From Candidatus Chisholmbacteria bacterium RIFCSPHIGHO2_01_FULL_52_32 (GTDB lineage: Bacteria > Patescibacteriota > Microgenomatia > UBA1400 > Chisholmbacteraceae), in assembly GCA_001816585.1 (NCBI GenBank), contig MHCJ01000003.1:82100-146099 (forward strand): 64,000 nucleotides of DNA. Direction: 5' to 3'. The notes under the pieces are model-generated. The model was not told where the DNA came from. It saw nothing but the letters and a program-made list of their open reading frames with translations, and searched no databases. Position 1 is the first letter of the stretch, and the number at the start of each line of letters is the position of its first letter. Shown here in pieces: positions 2,090-56,274 of this stretch. Made by a program: the position numbers and the translations under genes.

Positions 2090-2291
2090 GTTCGCACAAG
2101 AGGGCAGATACTTCTTTGCTCACCCAAAGAAGTATCCAAGAAAAGGTGCCCCATGAGCGTTCTTTCGGGAACACGTCTCGCTCACGCAATGCGATCAAAC
2201 TCCTTCGCGTCGAGCACTCGTCAGACAGTTGATCGCTTTTCAATGGTGTTCGCTTTCGCGTGTTCTCGAATAGCTCCGCTCAAAGGGGAAC
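2090..2291. repeat. Copy 1 of a ~200-bp interspersed hairpin element (family also at 22551-22755 and partially at 18100-18180)
   Basis: Long near-identical stretches shared with 22551-22755 (…gaatgacgcccc(a)tgagcg(g/t)tctttcgggaac…gcgatcaaactcct…gatcgctt…cgctcaaaggggaa). Contains a perfect 12-bp hairpin, GATACTTCTTTG…CAAAGAAGTATC. Confidence 0.5.
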
Positions 2292-2367
2292 AGCCAAAAT
2301 ACTAAAGACTAAAGACTAATGACTAAAGACTGAATGCTCAACCCTATACCCTATTCTTTGTTTTGCT

Positions 2368-3759
2368 TTGACGATGAGATTTACATACACTGAATGTATG
2401 GAGAAAGGGAGGTTTTCCGATTTCTTTGCCCGTGAGGATGTGATGGTGGTTTTAACCAGCTCACCTGCGGGGCTGGGACATGTACGGGTCACGGAAGCGC
2501 TGCGCGGGGGGTTGGAGGAAGGGGTGCGGGTGGAGGTGTTGGGACTTGAGGATCAGTCGGCTCAAGGGTTGCATCGGGCGGCAAGCCGAAACGTGATTTT
2601 GCGGGCAGTTATGGAGTTCGTTCAGAACAACCCATTGGTTGAGGAGAGTTTTTCAGAGCTGTATCGGGAGCGGCTGCGAAGAAAAGGCAAGGAAGCCTAC
2701 CATCGGCTGGTTGAGCTGGTCAAAAGACGACGGCCAAAACCCAAAGTGCTGTTGATTGTTTCCACCCATTTCGGTCTAGGATACCAGATAGCTGCGATCA
2801 AAAATAGGCTTGCCGAGGAGTTTAAACTGTGCGTGGTTTTGGCAGTGGTAGTGACCGACGATTCGCCGCAGAAGGTGTGGGGAGTGGTCGGTGCGGATTT
2901 TCTGTTTGTTCCAAGTCTAACCACAAAAGAATCTCTGGAAAGATACATGATGAGAATTACCAGAATTGTGCCGGAGGTGTTTGTAGTGCCGTATCCGGTT
3001 TCCGCAGATTTCTGTCAGCCTTTAACAAACAAAGCGTTTGCCGATCGGAAGTTGCAAGTCAATCCCCGGTTCAAAGAGCCGATGAAGATCATGATTCCAA
3101 TATCCGGTGCAGCCGTCCAATTGAACTATATTGAGGAAATGATTACTACATTAGAAAAGGAGAGGATTGCCGACATAACCGTTGTCTCTAGGGAATCAGA
3201 CTACACAAAACGGTTTTTGTCATGGTGCGGAGAGAGAAAATCGGTACGGGTGGTCGCGGAGATACAGGACCGGGATGTCGTCGCCGGCTATGAGAAGGAG
3301 TATGCCAACTCGGTATTCGGAGTCGAGATTACCAAACCCTCCGAGCAGGCTTTTAAGGCATTGATTACCCCGAAGCAGCGCGGTGGGGTCATCCTTCTTT
3401 TTTCGAATCCGGTCGGAAGGCAGGAGAATGATAACCTGGCGTTTTTGGTGCGGCACGATCTGTTGCCGTCTCCCGCTGATCGGGAGGTTCTCGGGAGATA
3501 TCTTTCTACCGGCGAGCGGAGGCTTATTGACGCAGCATTTTTAGAACGGGCGCAGCATTGGCGGGGGTTACTCCTCCCGTCTTCGGGAAGGGATGCCGGG
3601 AGGGCAATTTTGAAGCTTAGGCAGTGCGGGGTTTTGTCAGCGATGCTTGATTTTTCAGGGTACATGGACCACCCGGAATTGCGCAGCGATGGTGTCAGGA
3701 GGATTTGGAAGAAACTTGCGACAAGGGTGGGGGAGAAGTGCGGGATAGCAAGTAGCTAA
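2368..3759 (+). CDS. GT-B glycosyltransferase-like protein (MGDG synthase/UgtP-like N-terminus)
   Basis: 463-aa ORF. N-terminal 'VLTSSPAGLGHV' resembles the G-loop of MurG/MGDG-synthase family enzymes. Divergent from the upstream glycosyltransferase. The start may instead be the ATG at 2398. Confidence 0.45.
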   Translation: MTMRFTYTECMEKGRFSDFFAREDVMVVLTSSPAGLGHVRVTEALRGGLEEGVRVEVLGLEDQSAQGLHRAASRNVILRAVMEFVQNNPLVEESFSELYRERLRRKGKEAYHRLVELVKRRRPKPKVLLIVSTHFGLGYQIAAIKNRLAEEFKLCVVLAVVVTDDSPQKVWGVVGADFLFVPSLTTKESLERYMMRITRIVPEVFVVPYPVSADFCQPLTNKAFADRKLQVNPRFKEPMKIMIPISGAAVQLNYIEEMITTLEKERIADITVVSRESDYTKRFLSWCGERKSVRVVAEIQDRDVVAGYEKEYANSVFGVEITKPSEQAFKALITPKQRGGVILLFSNPVGRQENDNLAFLVRHDLLPSPADREVLGRYLSTGERRLIDAAFLERAQHWRGLLLPSSGRDAGRAILKLRQCGVLSAMLDFSGYMDHPELRSDGVRRIWKKLATRVGEKCGIASS

Positions 3760-40900: not shown

Positions 40901-41266
40901 ATGACAAAAATTCAAAATTCAAAACGATATGATCTTGAAGAGAGATCCTTTCGCTTCAGTAAGAGGGTTAGAGATTATACGAGAGAGCTTCCTAAAGGAA
41001 TGGCCAATCGGGAGTATATAAGACAACTTCTTCGGTCATCCGCCTCAATAGGGGCGAACTACATAGAAGCAAATGAATCGTTAAGTAAGAAGGATTTCTT
41101 GATGAGAATCAAGATCTGCCGCAAAGAGGCAAAGGAAAGTTGCTACTGGTTGCGGTTAGTAGAGGTTGGAAGTAATCGAGAGTTGGAGCGAGAGCGAGCG
41201 GATCTCACTAAGGAATCTTCAGAGCTAATGATGATCTTTAGTGCAATTATGAGGAAATCTGGATGA
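40901..41266 (+). CDS. Four-helix-bundle protein (23S-rRNA-intervening-sequence-type family)
   Basis: '…LLRSSASIGANYIEANESLSKKDFLMRIKICRKEAKESCYWLRLV…' matches the conserved core of this family (…RSA.SI..NIAEG…KDF…E…Y…L). Confidence 0.6.
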   Translation: MTKIQNSKRYDLEERSFRFSKRVRDYTRELPKGMANREYIRQLLRSSASIGANYIEANESLSKKDFLMRIKICRKEAKESCYWLRLVEVGSNRELERERADLTKESSELMMIFSAIMRKSG

Positions 41267-41340: not shown

Positions 41341-42450
41341 ATGGCTGAAATCGATCAGACTGAACGTGCTTACCGAGCGGCGGTGTATGAAGTGGATGGG
41401 ATCGGGCCGGCGAGGATGAAGGTTTTGTTGTCTGCCTTTGGCAGTGCAGAGAAGGTTTGGGGAACGGAAGAGAAGAAATTTCGTGAGATTGGGCTTTCCG
41501 GGGCGATTGTATCGGAGATCCGTAAAAAACGGGCAACAGTAGAACCGAAAAATCATCTTGCGGCTTTAGCAAAGCTTGGGATCCGTGTTTTAGTCATAGA
41601 AGACGAAGAGTACCCGGAACTTCTTAAAAAGATTGATGATTCCCCGCAAGTCTTATTTGTCAGAGGGCACTTTGATGCTTCGGACGCACGGGCAATCGCG
41701 GTGGTGGGAACGCGGAAGCCGACACCCTACGGGAGAGAGGTGACCGAGCGGTTGGTTGAACAATTGGTGGCGCTGGGATTTACCATCGTGTCGGGATTGG
41801 CTCGGGGAATAGACGGGATTGCCCATCGGACCGCTTTGGCAAGCGGAGGGAGGACCATTGGGGTTTTGGCGGGAGGGGTGGATCGGGTTTACCCGCCGGA
41901 GCATGTGGGGCTTGCGGAGGATATCTCAAAGCACGGAGCCGTGGTTTCCGAATTTGCGCCGGGTAAGTTGCCGATACCGGGGAATTTTCCGGCGAGGAAT
42001 CGCGTTATTTCCGGGCTGGCTTTGGGGGTGTTGGTCACGGAGGGGGCGGCAAAATCGGGGAGCAAAATTACCGCTACCTGGGCAGCGGAACAGGGGAGGG
42101 AGGTGTTTGCGGTACCGGGGCCGATAACAAGCCACCTTTCGCAGGCGCCAGCCGACTTGATCAAACTTGGGGCAAAGGTGGTGACGGATGTTTCGGATAT
42201 TTTAGAGGAACTTCGCGTACAGGTCGCACCTGTACGCGCTGGCGAAGTACGGGAGGTTGAAATTCCATTAGAGAATCTCGGTGCAGACGAGCGGAAGGTA
42301 TGGGAGGCGCTTGCGGACGGGAGTTTGCAGGCGGATGATCTTGTGCGAAAAGTTGGAATGGAAACGAGCGCCGTTTCGGCGATCCTCACGATGCTTGAGC
42401 TTCGGGGGTTGGTGAAGCATCTTGGGGGAATGGTTTACTGTAGAAAGTGA
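41341..42450 (+). CDS. dprA: DNA processing protein DprA (Smf)
   Basis: Rossmann-like core '…GRTIGVLAGGVDRVYPPEH…' with a C-terminal wHTH. Confidence 0.85.
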   Translation: MAEIDQTERAYRAAVYEVDGIGPARMKVLLSAFGSAEKVWGTEEKKFREIGLSGAIVSEIRKKRATVEPKNHLAALAKLGIRVLVIEDEEYPELLKKIDDSPQVLFVRGHFDASDARAIAVVGTRKPTPYGREVTERLVEQLVALGFTIVSGLARGIDGIAHRTALASGGRTIGVLAGGVDRVYPPEHVGLAEDISKHGAVVSEFAPGKLPIPGNFPARNRVISGLALGVLVTEGAAKSGSKITATWAAEQGREVFAVPGPITSHLSQAPADLIKLGAKVVTDVSDILEELRVQVAPVRAGEVREVEIPLENLGADERKVWEALADGSLQADDLVRKVGMETSAVSAILTMLELRGLVKHLGGMVYCRK

Positions 42451-42545
42451 AAAGTTCAAAGTTAAAAGTGAAAACTTACCATTCAAATTCAAAACTTGCT
42501 GTCAACTTGTCACTTTCAACTGCAACTTTTAACTTTTCATTTTGA
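42448..42545. repeat. AT-rich palindromic repeat block (AAAGTT/AACTTT family)
   Basis: 'gaaagtgaaaagttcaaagttaaaagtgaaaac…caacttttaacttttcattttgaactttaaac'. Confidence 0.45.
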
Positions 42546-42858
42546 ACTTTAAACTTTTTTCACCCTAAACCCTATTGCCTAGTGCCTATTTTTTGCATTC
42601 TGCAGGAAACCTTAAAGAAAGATTTCTTCCAGAATGCAGGAAATCACGGAATTGAGGGGGACGAGGGGGGGCTTTTGAGGGCCCAAGGTAAGAAGCCTCG
42701 TCGGCTCAAATGGTGCGATTTCCTACACGCATTCTGATTCGGGTGAATCCTGAGACGTAATGCAACGCAAGTGTTGTGTTGTCCAGGACTTTCCCGGATC
42801 GATGCAGTGAATAGCGGAATGAATGATGCTCCTCATGATGGAGGAGGAATGAGTGCGG

Positions 42859-42883
42859 AGGCTGGCGATCGAGCTGCCAGCCT
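42859..42883. repeat. REP-like hairpin AGGCTGGC-n9-GCCAGCCT (copy 1 of 3)
   Basis: Perfect 8-bp stem. Copies at 43210-43234 and 43595-43619 each lie 19-45 nt past the stop of a minus-strand small gene. Confidence 0.5.
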
Positions 42884-42928
42884 GTGTCGGTGTCGATCGG
42901 ATTTGGCTCACGACCGCCATCATGGATT

Positions 42929-43138
42929 CTATTTCTCGATGACTTCGACCTCCTCCTTGGGGTCGAATCGGTCGGCAATGCCATCGCCCAGCCAGAGTGA
43001 ATGACCTTCCTCGTCAGATCCAGGTTTGGTTTTGACATGAAAGGCCTCGTTGAGCTTGATGAAGAGCTCACCACTCTGCCGGCGATAGACGGCGCAAGCC
43101 CGAAGTCTCCCAATTCTTCGCATTCTTCGCTTTCCCAT
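42929..43138 (-). CDS. Small basic protein (hypothetical)
   Basis: The ORF track gives 42929..43258, but its N-terminus runs through the REP-like hairpin. It was trimmed to Met at 43138 ('MGKRRMRRIG…'). Confidence 0.3.
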   Translation of the reverse strand: MGKRRMRRIGRLRACAVYRRQSGELFIKLNEAFHVKTKPGSDEEGHSLWLGDGIADRFDPKEEVEVIEK

Positions 43139-43209
43139 CTGTCGTTTCCTCCTTTTCTTGGACGCAACAGGTTGAACCCGTGGTTCAGTGGATGTTATTA
43201 GAGTGGTAG

Positions 43210-43234
43210 AGGCTGGCGAAAGAGCTGCCAGCCT
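43210..43234. repeat. REP-like hairpin (copy 2)
   Basis: aggctggcgaaagagctgccagcct. Confidence 0.5.
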
Positions 43235-43258
43235 GTAGTGGTTGATCCAGTTGAGCAT

Positions 43259-43534
43259 TCAGATGTCGTTACGGCGCAGCAGGATCCTCTCCGGGATGTG
43301 ATATCTCCAGAGACCCCAGATCACAAGGAGCAGTGGACCTCCAAGCGCAGCGGCGAATGCCCATGTTGGAAGGAAGAACAGGATGGTAAACGCCCAATGG
43401 GTCAGGAGGCTTGTATTCGGGTACTGCAATCTCGTATACAGCGCTATGATCAACGACAACACGAGGAGCGACCCAAGCCAGAGTCCAGCCACCCGAACGA
43501 GAGCCACTATCCATTTCCGTCTTTGCGCAAACAT
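43259..43534 (-). CDS. Small membrane protein (2-3 TM; holin-like?)
   Basis: 91 aa, hydrophobic. Flanked by REP-like hairpins on both sides. Confidence 0.4.
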   Translation of the reverse strand: MFAQRRKWIVALVRVAGLWLGSLLVLSLIIALYTRLQYPNTSLLTHWAFTILFFLPTWAFAAALGGPLLLVIWGLWRYHIPERILLRRNDI

Positions 43535-43594
43535 GTCATTTTCTCCTTCTCGCCAATGGCGAGGCTAAGGTGACGGATCAGTAGATGATGGCGG

Positions 43595-43619
43595 AGGCTG
43601 GCGAAAAGCTTGCCAGCCT
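43595..43619. repeat. REP-like hairpin (copy 3)
   Basis: aggctggcgaaaagcttgccagcct. Confidence 0.5.
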
Positions 43620-43639
43620 TTTCGCTCGGGCCGGAGTGA

Positions 43640-44044
43640 TTAGATGGTGAGCAAGGTGGTAAGGAACCCGAAACCGCCTAAAGCGAAGAACATCACCATG
43701 ATGCAGATTCTGCCGAGCATCATGGAGGCTTCGCGTTCGAGTCCCCTTCGCTTCGTTGCAGCCCTGACTGGACCATCATGTCCAGGCCAGTCCACGATGA
43801 CGTCATCTGCTGTCCCACGCAGCTCTCTGAGCTCTCGGCGCAGGCGATGGTACTCCTTTAATCCTCCGTCTTGCATCACTCGACGCAGCAGCAGACAGCC
43901 AAAGAGCAGGTAGGCTAAGGCAATGGAGATGCTGATGAAGATACGGATCAGAATTGGAATTGTCATTCCCTTCCTCCTCCAACCAATGGCTAGGCTTATC
44001 AGATCGGATCGGTTGGCCTCTAAGGGGGCAGTTCCTTCCGGCAA
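43640..44044 (-). CDS. Small membrane protein (hypothetical)
   Basis: 134-aa ORF with TM segments at both ends. The start may be the internal Met. Confidence 0.4.
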   Translation of the reverse strand: MPEGTAPLEANRSDLISLAIGWRRKGMTIPILIRIFISISIALAYLLFGCLLLRRVMQDGGLKEYHRLRRELRELRGTADDVIVDWPGHDGPVRAATKRRGLEREASMMLGRICIMVMFFALGGFGFLTTLLTI

Positions 44045-44076
44045 AAGTCCTCCGGGATCAGTTGTCGTTGTCGGCG

Positions 44077-44451
44077 TCAGCCGATGGCCAAGAGGGCGGT
44101 TGAGGTCAGGGCGCCGACGGGCGGGCCGATGAAGGCTTCAGCGGTGAAGCCAGCTACAAAGGCCAGTGCGAAACGGAACGGTCGGCTAGCAGGCTTGAAT
44201 TTCGTGGACCAGAGCGCGGCGATGATGACAAGCCCCGCAATGAGCGAAAGGATGACCCGGGCGGCAATCGCCAGGGTTGACCCAAAGTACAGCTCACCGC
44301 CATTTGCGACGACTTCCAGGACTTGCCAGAGCCAGCGACAGCTGTGCCCGATGACGACGAAGAGGTAGGTGATTCCCATCTCTCCGGCTTCGGACATCTC
44401 CTGGTGTCCGTTTTGGACGGCCTGGGCGAAAAACACGATTCGGTTCATGGG
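44077..44451 (-). CDS. Membrane protein (hypothetical)
   Basis: The ORF track 44077..44781 overlaps the upstream gene out of frame. It was trimmed to Met at 44451, just past the upstream stop (44483). Confidence 0.4.
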   Translation of the reverse strand, partial: PMNRIVFFAQAVQNGHQEMSEAGEMGITYLFVVIGHSCRWLWQVLEVVANGGELYFGSTLAIAARVILSLIAGLVIIAALWSTKFKPASRPFRFALAFVAGFTAEAFIGPPVGALTSTALLAIG

Positions 44452-44482
44452 GTTCCTCCTCAGTATGAGCCGGTTTCGACGG

Positions 44483-45568
44483 TCAGGCGTCGATGACGCC
44501 TCGACCCAACAGATCGTCTCGGACGATATACCAGCGTTCTGCCTCGGGACGTTCGAGGAACGGTGTTGACGGTGGTGGTGGAGGTTGGACTTGCCACTGC
44601 GGCCATTCGGTGAATGCCTTCCACCACCCTTCATTGGTGATTCCAGTACCGAAATGCCATCCACCACCTCCGATAAGATTGCGGGTATGGAGCTCTTGGC
44701 CGAAAGCTGCGATGGCTTCAGTGGTTGCTGTTCCACCGTCTCCGGTGTAGAGACGGCCGATCGGGATGATCGGCTTACCACCTGCGATTTCAGACCACTG
44801 GGCGAGTGAGTGGTTGAGCATCCAGAGCATGTTGGCTACATATGAGCCCCACCAGTAGACCATCGGCATGCCGAAGTCGCAGTACTGCATGAACGCGGTG
44901 TACATTGACTTGTCGTGCCAAGTGCCTCCGGTGTTCGGGGAGCGGAAGAGGGGGAAGCAGACGAAGACCGTCGGCATTGTCGGTGCGACCAGTTTGAAGC
45001 TTTTCATATAGGTGTGGGCGTTACCCGCTGGATTGGCTTGGACTTCAAACGGTGCCTTCATCAGGGCTTGTGGGGGGACATCTAGCCCTTCGGCAATCCT
45101 CAGTGAGGCGACTTTGAGCGTCAAGCCTAAGTTCACTTGAGGAGTTACTTCGATAAACCCTACCTTTGTGCCCACTGCGGTGGCGACTGCCTGGGCGGTT
45201 TCGAACTCGATTTCGACGTCGAAAGCGACACCATCGAGTCCGATATTGAGCGCCTCTTTGGCTGCTACCTCGGCTTCCAGTGAGGGATTCTCTCCCAGAA
45301 TGTAGGCATAGCCCCAGACCCGGAGGCCTAGGCTCTGCCAGAGTAGGACGTGCTCTTTCTTGAGATTGATACCCCAAGTCGCAAATCCAGGCGGCGTATA
45401 GACGTACTTGCCGTTGACGAACTTCACGATGAGGGTATCGATTCCAGCGGAGAGGGCGGTTTCACCGATATTTTGGGGATTACCCCCAAGCAGCGCCGGA
45501 ACCTTCCAGATGAAGACGTACTTACCGAAGGGAGACATGGGGTTTACTCCTTTCAAAGTCTCCAACAA
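44483..45568 (-). CDS. Putative TIM-barrel glycoside hydrolase (GH25-muramidase-like pattern), Pro-rich linker and small C-terminal domain
   Basis: '…KYVFIWKVPALLGG…GIDTLIVKFVNGKYVYTPPGFATWGINLKKEHVLLWQSLGLRVWGYAYILG…' loosely parallels GH25 (…IDW…GVDFAIIKATEG…Y.DP.F..N…GL.VGAYHF). Followed by 'QPPPPPSTP'. Low confidence. Confidence 0.4.
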   Translation of the reverse strand: MLETLKGVNPMSPFGKYVFIWKVPALLGGNPQNIGETALSAGIDTLIVKFVNGKYVYTPPGFATWGINLKKEHVLLWQSLGLRVWGYAYILGENPSLEAEVAAKEALNIGLDGVAFDVEIEFETAQAVATAVGTKVGFIEVTPQVNLGLTLKVASLRIAEGLDVPPQALMKAPFEVQANPAGNAHTYMKSFKLVAPTMPTVFVCFPLFRSPNTGGTWHDKSMYTAFMQYCDFGMPMVYWWGSYVANMLWMLNHSLAQWSEIAGGKPIIPIGRLYTGDGGTATTEAIAAFGQELHTRNLIGGGGWHFGTGITNEGWWKAFTEWPQWQVQPPPPPSTPFLERPEAERWYIVRDDLLGRGVIDA

Positions 45569-45859
45569 GTGACGGGTTCCCTGTGTGTCTGTTTTGACAC
45601 TTTATCGCGGCAGGATAGCCGCGTTTGATTCCGCTATTCGGTTGTAAAGGTGCGCTTCGGTCTGCCGAGACGACCTTGCATGAGTGTTCAGGGCGTGCCG
45701 ACAGATCTGGCACGATATTTTTCAAAAAAGGCTTCAGTTGCCTGAAGCGGATGTCGATTATATCACAAATTCTCCCTGCAACTTGGCATTTTTCCGTTTC
45801 TCCGCTTGACATGGGTGGTAGAGTTTGAAAGAGTTTTACAAGCTACAAGCTAACAAGCT

Positions 45860-47863
45860 ATGAAATTAGTCATCGTCGAATCTCCAACAAAAGCACGGAC
45901 ACTATCCCGTTTCTTGGGTAAGGGCTATCAGATCGAGGCGAGCATGGGGCACGTGCGGGATTTACCGAAGAAGAAGCTCTCGGTTGATGTCGAGCATGAT
46001 TTCGCTCCGGACTACGCGGTCGTTCCGGAAAAAGAGAAGATCGTTAGGAAGTTAAAAGAGGCTGCGAAGAAAGCTTCGGAGATTTTTCTTTCCATGGATC
46101 CCGATCGGGAAGGTGAGGCGATTGCCTTCCATGTGAAGCACCTGATCGGAGGGAACGGAAAGTTCCGGCGTGTCGTGTTCCACGAAATCACCAAGCCGGC
46201 TATCGAGGCGGCATTTCTCAAACCGCGAGGCATCGATAAGAACCTCGTTGAAGCCCAGCAGGGGAGGAGGGTGCTTGACCGTCTGGTTGGCTACACGCTG
46301 TCGCCTCTTTTATGGCGCAAAGTCAGACGTGGGCTTTCGGCGGGACGTGTGCAGTCGGTGGCTGTTCGTCTGATCGTTGAGCGGGAGCGGGAGATTGAGG
46401 CGTTTGTTCCGGAGGAGTACTGGGTGATTGGTGCGGATGTTTCCAAACTGACCGATCCGAACTCGGTGTTTACGGTTTGGCTGTGGAAGATCGACGGGGG
46501 AAAAGCGAAAGTATCTGACGTAGAGCAGGCAAAGACCGTCGTTTCCGATTTAGAATCTTCAAACTACACGATATCTTCGGTTGAGCGGAAGGAGGTTCGC
46601 AAACATCCATACCCGCCGTTTACCACTTCGACCTTACAGCAAAGCGCTTCGAACCTGTTCCATATGACCGCCAAGCAGACGATGCGGCTCGCCCAAACAC
46701 TGTACGAGTTGGGACACATTACGTACCACCGTACCGATAGCGTTCACCTGGCACCCGAGGCGGTTGCGGCGGCACGGTCCTTTATTCAGAAAACCTACGG
46801 AGATGCCTATCTTCCCGAGAAACCGAGGTTCTATAAAGTGCAGAGTAAGCTTGCCCAAGAGGCACACGAGGCGATCCGGCCGACGCATGTGGAAGTTGAG
46901 CCGGATGCGCTTGATTTTCCCGACAAGGCCGGCGGCGGCCTTCGGCGCTTATACCAACTTATCCACCGGCGGTTTGTGGCCTCGCAGATGGCGGATGCAG
47001 TTTACGATCAGACGACGGTAGAAGTAATAACTCACTCAAAACTGAAAACTCAAAACTTAAAAGTATATCTCTTGCGGGCGGTCGGGAGTCTTCGGAAGTT
47101 TGACGGGTGGAAGAAATTGTTTGGTAAAAATAACGACGAACAGCAATTCCCGGAGCTTGTCACCGGGGAGGGATTGAACCTTGTCAAGGTTTTGTCGGAG
47201 CAGAAATTTACCGAGCCGCCTTCGAGGTACACCGACGCGACCTTAGTGAAAGCTTTGGAGGAGCGGGGGATCGGGCGGCCCTCAACGTATGCGCCGACGA
47301 TCTCCACAATTTTGGCCCGGCAGTACGTTACCTATGATGAGCGAAAGTTTGTCCCGACACCGGTTGGGATTGCGGCCAACGATTTCTTGGTGGGGAACTT
47401 CGATACGATCGTTGACTACGATTTCACCGCCAGCATGGAGGATGATCTGGACAAGATTGCAGACGGGAAGCGGGAATGGGTTCCGGTGATCCGGGAGTTT
47501 TGGGGACCGTTCCATTCAAAAGCGGAGGCCGTGGCAAAGAATGCCAAGCGGGTGAAAGTGGCGACGGAGGCAACGGGGGAGAAGTGCCCGGTTTGCCACG
47601 AGGGAGATGTGGTGATTCGGGTCGGGCGGTTCGGGAAGTTCCTCTCTTGTTCCCGGTTTCCGGAGTGCAAATACACGGCGAATTATGTTGAGAAACTGGC
47701 GGGAGTGAAGTGCCCCCTAGACGACGGGGATGTTGTTATTAAGCGGACGCGGCGTGGGAAGCAGTTTTACGGGTGCTCCAATTACCCTAAATGCAAGTGG
47801 GCGAGTTGGCGGAAACCGACTCCACCCACGGTCACTCCGTCTTCCACTGTTCAAACTTCCTAA
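45860..47863 (+). CDS. topA: DNA topoisomerase I
   Basis: TOPRIM 'KLVIVESPTKA', catalytic-Tyr region, and C-terminal Zn-ribbons (CPVC…C; CPLDDG…C). Carries a ~9-aa in-frame insert 'ITHSKLKTQNLKVY' made of repeat units (47028-47068). Confidence 0.9.
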   Translation: MKLVIVESPTKARTLSRFLGKGYQIEASMGHVRDLPKKKLSVDVEHDFAPDYAVVPEKEKIVRKLKEAAKKASEIFLSMDPDREGEAIAFHVKHLIGGNGKFRRVVFHEITKPAIEAAFLKPRGIDKNLVEAQQGRRVLDRLVGYTLSPLLWRKVRRGLSAGRVQSVAVRLIVEREREIEAFVPEEYWVIGADVSKLTDPNSVFTVWLWKIDGGKAKVSDVEQAKTVVSDLESSNYTISSVERKEVRKHPYPPFTTSTLQQSASNLFHMTAKQTMRLAQTLYELGHITYHRTDSVHLAPEAVAAARSFIQKTYGDAYLPEKPRFYKVQSKLAQEAHEAIRPTHVEVEPDALDFPDKAGGGLRRLYQLIHRRFVASQMADAVYDQTTVEVITHSKLKTQNLKVYLLRAVGSLRKFDGWKKLFGKNNDEQQFPELVTGEGLNLVKVLSEQKFTEPPSRYTDATLVKALEERGIGRPSTYAPTISTILARQYVTYDERKFVPTPVGIAANDFLVGNFDTIVDYDFTASMEDDLDKIADGKREWVPVIREFWGPFHSKAEAVAKNAKRVKVATEATGEKCPVCHEGDVVIRVGRFGKFLSCSRFPECKYTANYVEKLAGVKCPLDDGDVVIKRTRRGKQFYGCSNYPKCKWASWRKPTPPTVTPSSTVQTS

Positions 47864-48658: not shown

Positions 48659-48693
48659 AAGAGGTCGGACCTCTGCACAAAGGTCCGACCTCT
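48659..48693. promoter_or_regulatory. Tandem palindromic boxes AAGAGGTCGGACCTCT-n6-AGGTCCGACCTCT ~125 nt upstream of nrdJ (candidate operator)
   Basis: Palindromes read directly. A near-identical tandem pair is at 56238-56274. Confidence 0.35.
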
Positions 48694-56237: not shown

Positions 56238-56274
56238 GAGAGGTCGGACCTCTAAACACAGAGGCCCAACCTCT
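56238..56274. promoter_or_regulatory. Tandem palindromic boxes GAGAGGTCGGACCTCT-n6-AGAGGCCCAACCTCT (second site of the same motif as 48659-48693)
   Basis: Read directly. It lies between the TS-like gene and the downstream kinase/HAD/tmk genes. Confidence 0.35.

Follow-up and report, generated by a model that had tools for sequence, protein, structure and literature searches.

We describe a gene module on the minus strand of a 64,000-nucleotide (nt) stretch of DNA, here called the window, from Candidatus Chisholmbacteria bacterium RIFCSPHIGHO2_01_FULL_52_32 (contig MHCJ01000003.1, positions 82,100 to 146,099). The module comprises a gene for a glycoside-hydrolase-like protein (g1), four small genes (g2 to g5) and three copies of one short hairpin, each placed shortly after a stop codon. 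We tentatively interpret it as a vertically inherited chromosomal operon of the lysin/holin type for wall remodelling or export, wherein the hairpins would serve as RNA punctuation, a reading to which we give a little under even weight. What is new is a combination of features, namely an operon-private, invariant hairpin that is reused within the array and kept across deeply diverged lineages of the Candidate Phyla Radiation (CPR), in a unit bracketed by a co-varying inverted repeat. Lysin–holin-like gene pairs and intercistronic hairpins are each already known in principle.

Three hairpins of the form AGGCTGGC-n9-GCCAGCCT follow the last three genes of the module, where 0.03 are expected, and none of 100 shuffles reached three. 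Each window copy folds into an 8-base-pair (bp) stem with a 9-nt loop at about -16 kcal/mol. An earlier note on this DNA, made from the sequence alone, had stated that each small gene is followed by the same hairpin, which holds for g3, g4 and g5 and slightly overstates the case with respect to g2. No further copies are found within the window, either at two or fewer mismatches or by a profile search with nhmmer, and none of the other window genes is followed by a comparable hairpin.

The same element recurs in related loci and contigs, which are designated by L-numbers (L001, L012, L013, L035, L046, L049 and others; L014 is a metagenomic contig 99% identical to the window). The 14 distinct copies, which come from seven lineages, all follow a stop codon in the sense orientation, and they yield the consensus a-GGCTGGCAgc-nnnn-TCGCCAGCC-tcc. 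Both 7-nt stem arms match at 100% in every one of the 91 pairwise comparisons, and identity over the 23-nt core is 90%, with variation in the central 4 nt. Flanking sequence 11–45 nt away on either side is only 24–26% identical, which is the random level, with weak conservation over the nearer 10 nt or so; over the same divergence the hydrolase retains 47–68% identity. Because the stems are invariant without covariation, the sequence itself, and not merely its folding, must be under selection, which in turn implies a sequence-specific reader.

The earlier note called the hairpin REP-like, a label that does not hold. Repetitive extragenic palindromic (REP) elements are scattered over a whole genome. 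This hairpin, by contrast, is restricted to a single module, in the window as in the Chisholmbacteria reference genome; the matches listed from the latter include one copy, located in the homologous module. A REP-type dispersed repeat is thus excluded. A terminator scan calls the three hairpins on neither strand. An integron attC site was rejected, since 0 of 14 copies carry the RYYYAAC...GTTRRRY core-site pair and the unit measures 23 nt rather than 57–141 nt; there is also no integron integrase or recombinase among the module neighbours and no cassette turnover in more than ten assemblies of one species. A CRISPR array was likewise rejected: the copies are spaced by 351 and 385 nt with protein-coding intervals, whereas CRISPR needs repeats of 23–47 nt and non-coding spacers of 21–72 nt. 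A search with Rfam 15 over positions 42400–45900 returns two chance-level matches (E = 0.33 and 0.43), neither of them on a hairpin, and matches neither the leader nor the tail of the module.

Matches outside Chisholmbacteria-like loci, among those listed from genomes and metagenomes, are single copies on unrelated contigs and were judged to arise by chance; those from the metagenome scan all lie in contigs of high G+C (GC) content (0.57–0.72). The hairpin pattern is unmatched in IMG/VR viral contigs.

The minus-strand open reading frames (ORFs), the three hairpins and the raised GC content that the earlier note reported are all confirmed, with corrections to gene lengths and to the claim of a hairpin after g2. 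The ORF described as 361 amino acids (aa), beginning at a TTG at 45568, is real, and translation more likely begins at the ATG at 45538, giving 351 aa in agreement with all homologues and with the L014 gene call. Similarly, the membrane protein given as 125 aa has 123 aa, and the 134-aa ORF is more likely a 108-aa gene starting from the ATG at 43966, as called on L014. The 91-aa and approximately 70-aa (now 69-aa) ORFs stand as first described, and all five gene models equal the gene calls on L014. A codon-usage score trained on 16 confident window genes supports the called frame of g1 to g4 and cannot tell the called frame of the 69-aa ORF from the opposite strand. The genes are co-directional and separated by short gaps, with Shine–Dalgarno sequences, and g2 starts 34 nt past the hydrolase stop. 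Module GC content is 0.560 against 0.516 for the window, which ranks at the top of 307 equal-size windows and about 2 standard deviations above the mean.

An AlphaFold2 model of the 351-aa protein shows a regular (β/α)8 barrel with a predicted local distance difference test (pLDDT) score of 86, and above 95 in the core. This model is based on an alignment of 52 family members and replaced an earlier one built from eight sequences (pLDDT 70). In structural comparison it most resembles the peptidoglycan hydrolase Cwp19 (GHL10, PDB 5oq2), followed by GH18 chitinases, so that the earlier expectation of a glycoside-hydrolase-type fold is borne out at the level of prediction. The accompanying GH25-muramidase label is not: the protein has no Pfam match, reaches a GH25 chain only at E = 0.28 and has no GH25 member among its top structural matches. 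The poly-Pro linker and small C-terminal part are present as described, at residues 319–325 and as a short C-terminal helix, respectively.

Among the 52 family members, conserved residues occupy strand 4 (D102-G-x3-D107-x-E109), strand 6 (Y228, kept in 52 of 52) and strand 8 (W294, kept in 46 of 52). The strand 4 family motif, D-G-x-(A/V/I)-x-D-x-E, has its first Asp in 44 of 52 members, Asp or Asn at its third position in all 52 and Glu in 51. Thus, the middle Asp of the GH18 motif DxxDxDxE is missing and is replaced by Ala, Val or Ile. In the model these residues sit where three strands end, which suggests an active site with a GH18 layout that lacks the middle Asp.

Database searches place the protein outside named families. 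There is no Pfam match at E ≤ 1 for the 351-aa protein or for any of the 52 family members, and neither the GHL10 (PF02638) nor the GH25 (PF01183) profile matches it; PHROGs, NCBIfam and PADLOC also leave it unmatched. A search of PDB sequences finds nothing with a single-family profile and only matches at E ≥ 0.07 with the 52-member profile. A word-indexed search of 5.8 billion protein clusters finds only seven close relatives. By contrast, searching 1.84 billion cluster representatives with a profile returns a family of 1,170 representatives at E ≤ 0.001, for clusters formed at 50% identity. A typical member has about 300 aa, and a signal peptide is found in none of 11 members inspected. Other members are fused to NAGPA phosphodiester-glycosidase domains, to SH3_3 or to the NTF2-like domain SnoaL_2; those bearing SnoaL_2 are from Chloroflexota, where they are encoded among housekeeping genes. 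Assignment of the 351-aa protein to an unclassified family of glycoside-hydrolase-type enzymes is therefore well supported by the predicted fold, and its substrate is probably a wall glycan or another glycan containing N-acetylglucosamine.

Two further features of the protein deserve mention. Residues 111–165 (45046–45210) form a 55-residue, low-confidence insertion directly after E109, at a point where 50 of 52 members have only 4–5 residues; the insertion is common only to the window protein and its closest relatives and could act as a lid or an auto-inhibitory loop. The tails that follow the poly-Pro segment are of two helical types, W..W.R..GY.GP.P, which also occurs on viral-contig relatives, and ..LL/LVD..G, which is the window type (44483–44580). 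This comparison drew on the window, P0003, P0007, P0009 and L050 (3989–4927), and the tail type is uncorrelated with the type of g2 partner.

The viral-contig relatives are encoded on two IMG/VR contigs, L002 and L050, which are classed as viral and were found using the eight-sequence alignment. A tblastn search of 50,697 phage genomes in INPHARED gives no match to the hydrolase, and PHROG scans of its neighbours on L002 and L050 match only families of unknown function, so a viral origin of the hydrolase family is weakly supported. On L050 (11–6643), genes for three large proteins flank that of the hydrolase relative, and each of these proteins carries the motif GGPGSGHxGHxGRPGxVGGSxPxDFHS.

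The product of g2 is the sole small protein conserved across the related modules. Its hydrophilic N-terminal part carries a conserved MSE(E/A)GE motif and its C-terminal half is hydrophobic, with segments at approximately residues 53–77 and 92–122. A g2 homologue immediately follows the hydrolase in every related module apart from L012, which lacks g2. Homologues are 29–35% identical to the window protein and up to 69% identical to each other, and they are very rare in public data. This arrangement, a small protein with 1–4 transmembrane segments adjoining a signal-less hydrolase, fits the layout of holins.

The remaining genes vary by lineage: beyond g2 there are three in the window, four in L001, one each in L035 and L046, and none in L012. 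These genes mostly encode membrane or secreted proteins that are mutually unrelated for the most part. Beyond g2, the only similarity across arrays is weak (45% over 31 aa, E = 0.002) and links g3 to the 102-aa gene that closes the L001 array. No homologue was found for g5, and none outside its own species for g4. The description of the four small proteins as mostly membrane proteins fits g2, g3 and g4, which have hydrophobic segments, and not g5, which is soluble with a basic N-terminus and an acidic C-terminus. Scans of all five proteins against Pfam, PHROG, NCBIfam and PADLOC give nothing significant. In L046, a 416-aa gene between two hairpins (2219–3469, minus strand) encodes a product that resembles a lipoprotein, with a Cys following its hydrophobic N-terminal stretch, and that has the metalloprotease motif HEMLH (HExxH); variable genes can thus encode secreted enzymes and not only small membrane proteins. 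Homology between arrays begins or ends at a hairpin, and no identical cassette occupies two positions among the arrays compared.

The locus is core chromosome rather than prophage. The module is flanked by dprA (41341–42450) and topA (45860–47863), both on the plus strand, and a family scan gives the neighbour order mreB, mreC, PBP2, a 23S rRNA intervening-sequence (IVS) protein, dprA, the module, topA, a GDSL hydrolase, ribonucleotide reductase (RNR) and a sortase. No phage or recombinase gene is present among the neighbours scanned. The order PBP2, IVS protein, dprA, module, topA and RNR is also found in Candidatus Chisholmbacteria RIFCSPLOWO2_01_FULL_49_14 (MHCL01000008.1) and on several metagenomic contigs, and in these syntenic relatives DprA and TopA are approximately 67% and 74% identical to the window proteins, which places the window with relatives of Chisholmbacteria in the Microgenomates group of the CPR. 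One species is represented by more than ten independent assemblies, which agree in both the array and the module orientation, with no within-species variation. A different context is seen for L012, where the minimal bracketed unit adjoins an Amidase_3 gene.

The module also carries conserved non-coding elements at both ends. The putative extended -10 promoter, TGnTATAAT, is kept at the same place in the window, L001 and L035, and L049 has a close variant, TGATATATT. Directly downstream is a leader hairpin for which four lineages retain all seven pairs, with one compensatory change, two changes to G-U and none that break pairing. A terminator placed where the leader begins would suggest attenuation control, making this hairpin a candidate attenuator of the operon.

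A perfect 12-nt inverted repeat encloses the whole module and is conserved in six lineages, with the left arm found in the window, L001, L013, L035 and L049 and the right arm in the window, L001, L013, L035 and L046. In L012, whose bracketed unit consists of only the hydrolase and one hairpin, both arms have co-varied by two G-C to A-U changes and one G-U, and a single change in L013 also leads to G-U. All four substitutions pair on the sense RNA and mismatch on the antisense strand, which hints that the 5′ and 3′ ends of the transcript may pair. Beyond the right arm lies a tail of about 230 nt that is conserved in five lineages and across which ORFs score as non-coding. The 3′ arm of its long stem can alternatively pair into a neighbouring hairpin (42588–42644), and the tail could represent a 3′ untranslated region, a small RNA or a regulatory switch.

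Table 1 Features of the module, in the direction of transcription, and arrays of related loci (HP, hairpin; numbers in arrays are protein lengths in aa)
Feature	Coordinates	Strand	Remarks
Extended -10 promoter TGaTATAAT (putative)	45757..45765	-	Read from sequence and conservation
Leader hairpin GCTTCAG-gcaa-CTGAAGC, then T6	45724..45748	-	Terminator scan
Inverted repeat, left arm (sense GAATAGCGGAAT)	45628..45639	-	89 nt before hydrolase ATG
g1, hydrolase, 351 aa, signal-less (β/α)8 glycoside-hydrolase-like (predicted)	44483..45538	-	ATG preceded by GGAG
g2, membrane protein, 123 aa	44077..44448	-	Homologues directly after hydrolase in related modules
g3, 108 aa	43640..43966	-	Hydrophobic N- and C-terminal segments, charged middle
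Hairpin copy 1 (sense AGGCTGGCAAGCTTTTCGCCAGCCT)	43595..43619	-	20 nt past g3 stop
g4, 91 aa	43259..43534	-	Two hydrophobic segments
Hairpin copy 2	43210..43234	-	24 nt past g4 stop
g5, 69 aa	42929..43138	-	Soluble, highly charged
Hairpin copy 3 (terminal)	42859..42883	-	45 nt past g5 stop
Second, different hairpin CTCCTC-catcat-GAGGAG	42829..42846	-	After terminal copy; CTTCCTC...GAGGAAG at same place in other lineages
Inverted repeat, right arm (sense ATTCCGCTATTC)	42809..42820	-	After last hairpin
Conserved non-coding tail, long stem CAGAATGC..AGGAAATC / GATTTCCTGCATTCTG	42575..42808	-	Between right arm and dprA stop
Window array			351, 123, 108, HP, 91, HP, 69, HP
L001 array			355, 148, HP, 91, HP, 326, HP, 129, HP, 102, HP
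L035 array			328, 146, HP, 116
L046 array			Hydrolase (cut by contig end), 167, HP, 416, HP
L013 array			352, 142, 255, HP
L012 array			338, HP

If our favoured interpretation is correct, the module would be an operon inserted at the dprA–topA junction of Chisholmbacteria-like CPR bacteria, antisense to both genes. Its single extended -10 promoter would yield a polycistronic RNA that is probably gated by attenuation at the leader terminator. The first product would be a wall glycosidase made in the cytoplasm without a signal peptide. By analogy with holins that act for endolysins, or with type 10 secretion, g2 would then most likely give the enzyme access to the wall, and the further genes would contribute lineage-variable small membrane or secreted proteins. 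On the polycistronic RNA, the hairpins would be 3′-end or processing elements that are recognized sequence-specifically, rather than plain terminators. They would set the ends of sub-transcripts and the survival of each segment, presumably through binding of a dedicated factor, and the 12-nt bracketing repeat may bring the two transcript ends together by base pairing.

Several observations weigh against this reading. No hairpin follows g2, where the nhmmer profile does not find even a degenerate copy, and none of the module genes encodes a candidate reader protein. The hairpin stems show zero compensatory changes, as would also be expected of a DNA site, whereas an RNA selected only for its fold should drift. 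The sense tails of the three copies (TCCGCCAT, TCTACCAC and TCCGCACT) lack the U-tract of an intrinsic terminator, and the pairing evidence for the inverted repeat consists of four substitutions in two lineages. With regard to the proteins, the best match to a holin family is PHROG phrog_6384 at E = 0.14, with none in Pfam, NCBIfam or PADLOC, and the hydrolase family has neither a PHROG model nor a match in the phage genomes searched. Moreover, a Chloroflexota genome encodes a family member among housekeeping genes with no membrane partner, and a cytoplasmic role for the enzyme must therefore be kept in consideration.

The module might instead be a lysis or bacteriocin cassette left behind by a prophage, encoding an endolysin together with holin, antiholin or immunity proteins, and carrying plain terminators or insulators whose identity reflects duplication and gene conversion. 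We consider this unlikely, although not negligibly so. A lysis (endolysin–holin) or bacteriocin function, as the earlier note proposed, is compatible with the absent signal peptide and the always-adjacent protein with two transmembrane segments. Relatives on two IMG/VR contigs, the elevated GC content, a G-U pair gained by the stem on the antisense strand and T-rich runs after several copies also fit a prophage remnant. However, the core-chromosome setting amid mreB, mreC, PBP2, dprA, topA and RNR genes, with no phage or recombinase genes nearby, argues against such an origin, as does occupation of the same site in lineages whose DprA proteins are only about 67% identical. Stems that are identical between species amid random flanks present another difficulty, because gene conversion within one genome cannot account for identity that spans species. 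Finally, plain terminators are poorly matched by hairpins that have no U-tract on the sense strand and that the terminator scan passes over on both strands.

A more ambitious proposal is that the invariant stem-loop is the site of a dedicated factor and that, together with the bracketing repeat, it defines a new modular type of gene array in CPR bacteria. This could take either of two forms, which even jointly strike us as rather unlikely. In the first, cassettes would be captured behind a lysin–holin core by site-specific recombination at the hairpins, with neither attC sites nor an adjacent integrase. In the second, a sequence-specific hairpin-binding protein would make and protect the 3′ end of each cistron on an mRNA whose ends are paired, in a manner resembling the stem-loop binding protein (SLBP) of histone mRNAs.

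It is also conceivable, though improbable in our estimation, that the enzyme processes glycans or muropeptides in the cytoplasm, for wall recycling or the scavenging of host sugars, and that the membrane proteins are unrelated transport or anchoring factors with no part in export or lysis. The lack of signal peptides in the members inspected, the Chloroflexota members with SnoaL_2 domains among housekeeping genes and the absence of the family from phage protein families are all in line with this possibility. Yet other members are fused to wall-binding SH3_3 domains and to NAGPA domains, the nearest solved fold is that of a surface peptidoglycan hydrolase and, in this clade, the enzyme is strictly coupled to a membrane protein.

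A further alternative holds that the hairpins are DNA recombination sites bounding mobile cassettes, as in an integron but without classical attC sites. Array content does vary among the window, L001, L035, L046 and L012, with homology that starts and stops at the hairpin, and the strict conservation, fixed orientation and variable 4-nt centre of the element, as well as the minimal bracketed unit of L012 in another genomic context, would suit such sites. Nevertheless, we find this quite improbable. No recombinase is encoded in the module or its neighbours, the RYYYAAC and GTTRRRY sites are absent and the unit is far shorter than attC. In addition, the centre differs among copies of one array, which would hinder exchange of the Cre/Xer type, and the array is the same in more than ten assemblies of one species, with no cassette seen at two positions.

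Very improbable, in our judgement, is the idea that the palindromes are operators for a dimeric regulator, with the two arms of the bracketing repeat serving as sites for DNA looping or module inversion. Perfect, invariant half-sites without covariation and an inverted repeat that brackets the unit precisely are in keeping with such a model. The sites, however, follow genes instead of lying at the promoter, and their half-sites have an unusual centre-to-centre spacing of 16 bp. A symmetric dimer would need neither the conserved asymmetry (AGC...TC) nor the fixed orientation. Furthermore, module orientation is the same in all assemblies, and the single substitutions within the inverted repeat allow a G-U pair on the sense RNA only. 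Scarcely credible is a selfish repeat like REP or the miniature inverted-repeat transposable elements (MITEs), whose short, GC-rich intergenic palindromes the hairpins resemble: there are three copies in 64 kb, all in the module and always in one orientation, the reference genome has its one copy in the same module, and no transposase gene, including the IS200/IS605-like REP-associated type (RAYT), is found among the module neighbours scanned.

Our preferred interpretation, of a wall-remodelling or export operon punctuated by RNA hairpins, can be compared with several known systems. Cwp19 of Clostridioides difficile and the GH18 chitinases share only 9–14% identity with the hydrolase, which differs from them in having no signal peptide, no cell-wall-binding repeats and, in the prediction, a 55-aa insertion past the putative catalytic Glu. 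Type 10 secretion uses a holin together with a wall hydrolase to export a GH18 chitinase from cells that do not lyse (PMC10109510, PMC9527704). Phage holin–endolysin pairs and type 10 systems, such as the chitinase operons of Serratia and Salmonella, likewise place a gene for a signal-less glycosidase beside one for a small membrane protein, and the module similarly is a chromosomal operon that appears to be tightly controlled. In contrast to these systems, it has no match to a known holin, endolysin or spanin family, carries no separate cargo gene and resides in a CPR host. To our knowledge, punctuation of cistrons by an invariant hairpin is not a described feature of holin or type 10 systems.

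It is well established that hairpins between cistrons can protect 3′ ends, as do the malE–malF REP element and the menBCE intercistronic stem-loops, which block 3′–5′ exonucleases and set segmental mRNA stability (PMC5927463). Like these elements, the module hairpins are stable, lie shortly after stop codons, occur several times per operon and lack a U-tract. Whereas the known protective stem-loops are mutually different, covarying or genome-wide REP copies, the module reuses one private sequence that is invariant across lineages. The puf operon of Rhodobacter provides another example of a protective intercistronic stem-loop.

Integron cassette arrays offer a different parallel, being composed of promoterless, co-oriented, mostly small genes of unknown function, each followed by an imperfect palindrome, with content that varies between relatives. 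The module departs from them in having no integrase and no R''/L''-L'/R' boxes, in conserving sequence and not just structure, and in being stable within a species. In eukaryotes, the 3′ stem-loop of histone mRNAs is also sequence-invariant and placed after each clustered gene, where it is read by SLBP and defines the RNA 3′ end; it belongs to a different domain of life, and the analogy is purely functional. We know of no described bacterial operon in which an operon-private, letter-invariant hairpin follows each downstream gene.

Few CPR bacteria have been cultured, and their presumed lifestyle is one of attachment to other microbes; how they remodel their own walls or attack those of their hosts is largely obscure. 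The locus offers a conserved candidate for wall remodelling in these organisms, consisting of an unclassified glycosidase family with a private membrane partner near cell-elongation genes and dprA. If the reader of the hairpin acts on RNA, the module would offer a simple, natural means of setting how strongly cistrons are expressed relative to one another, and if it acts on DNA, the hairpin would represent a new type of cassette site.

The surroundings of the module show additional sequence features. Between PBP2 and dprA, the gene of the 23S rRNA IVS protein family (PF05635) at 40901–41266 has a GC content of 0.41, and the same arrangement is present in the Chisholmbacteria reference genome. 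The dprA stop is overlapped by an imperfect, AT-rich palindrome (42439–42562), whose arms measure about 60 nt and are built from AAAGT/AAAAGT-like units. This palindrome runs downstream, ends in a T-run and is probably the dprA terminator, and similar AT-rich repeats occur at the end of dprA in L001 and L046. The L001 contig end upstream of the module, where topA is expected (1–360), consists of tandem heptamers of the plant-type telomere unit, (TTTAGGG)n, followed by (TTAGTCA)n, which are probably the reason for the assembly break. Lastly, a second family of palindromes, GAGGTC-s-GACCTC, occurs three times in the window (48661–48673, 48680–48692 and 56240–56252) against 0.14 expected, with two tandem copies in the divergent region ahead of the ribonucleotide reductase gene. 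Related modules contain copies as well (L001 4275–4287, L012 4059–4071 and L013 1766–1778), and the family may be a dispersed regulatory or repeat element.

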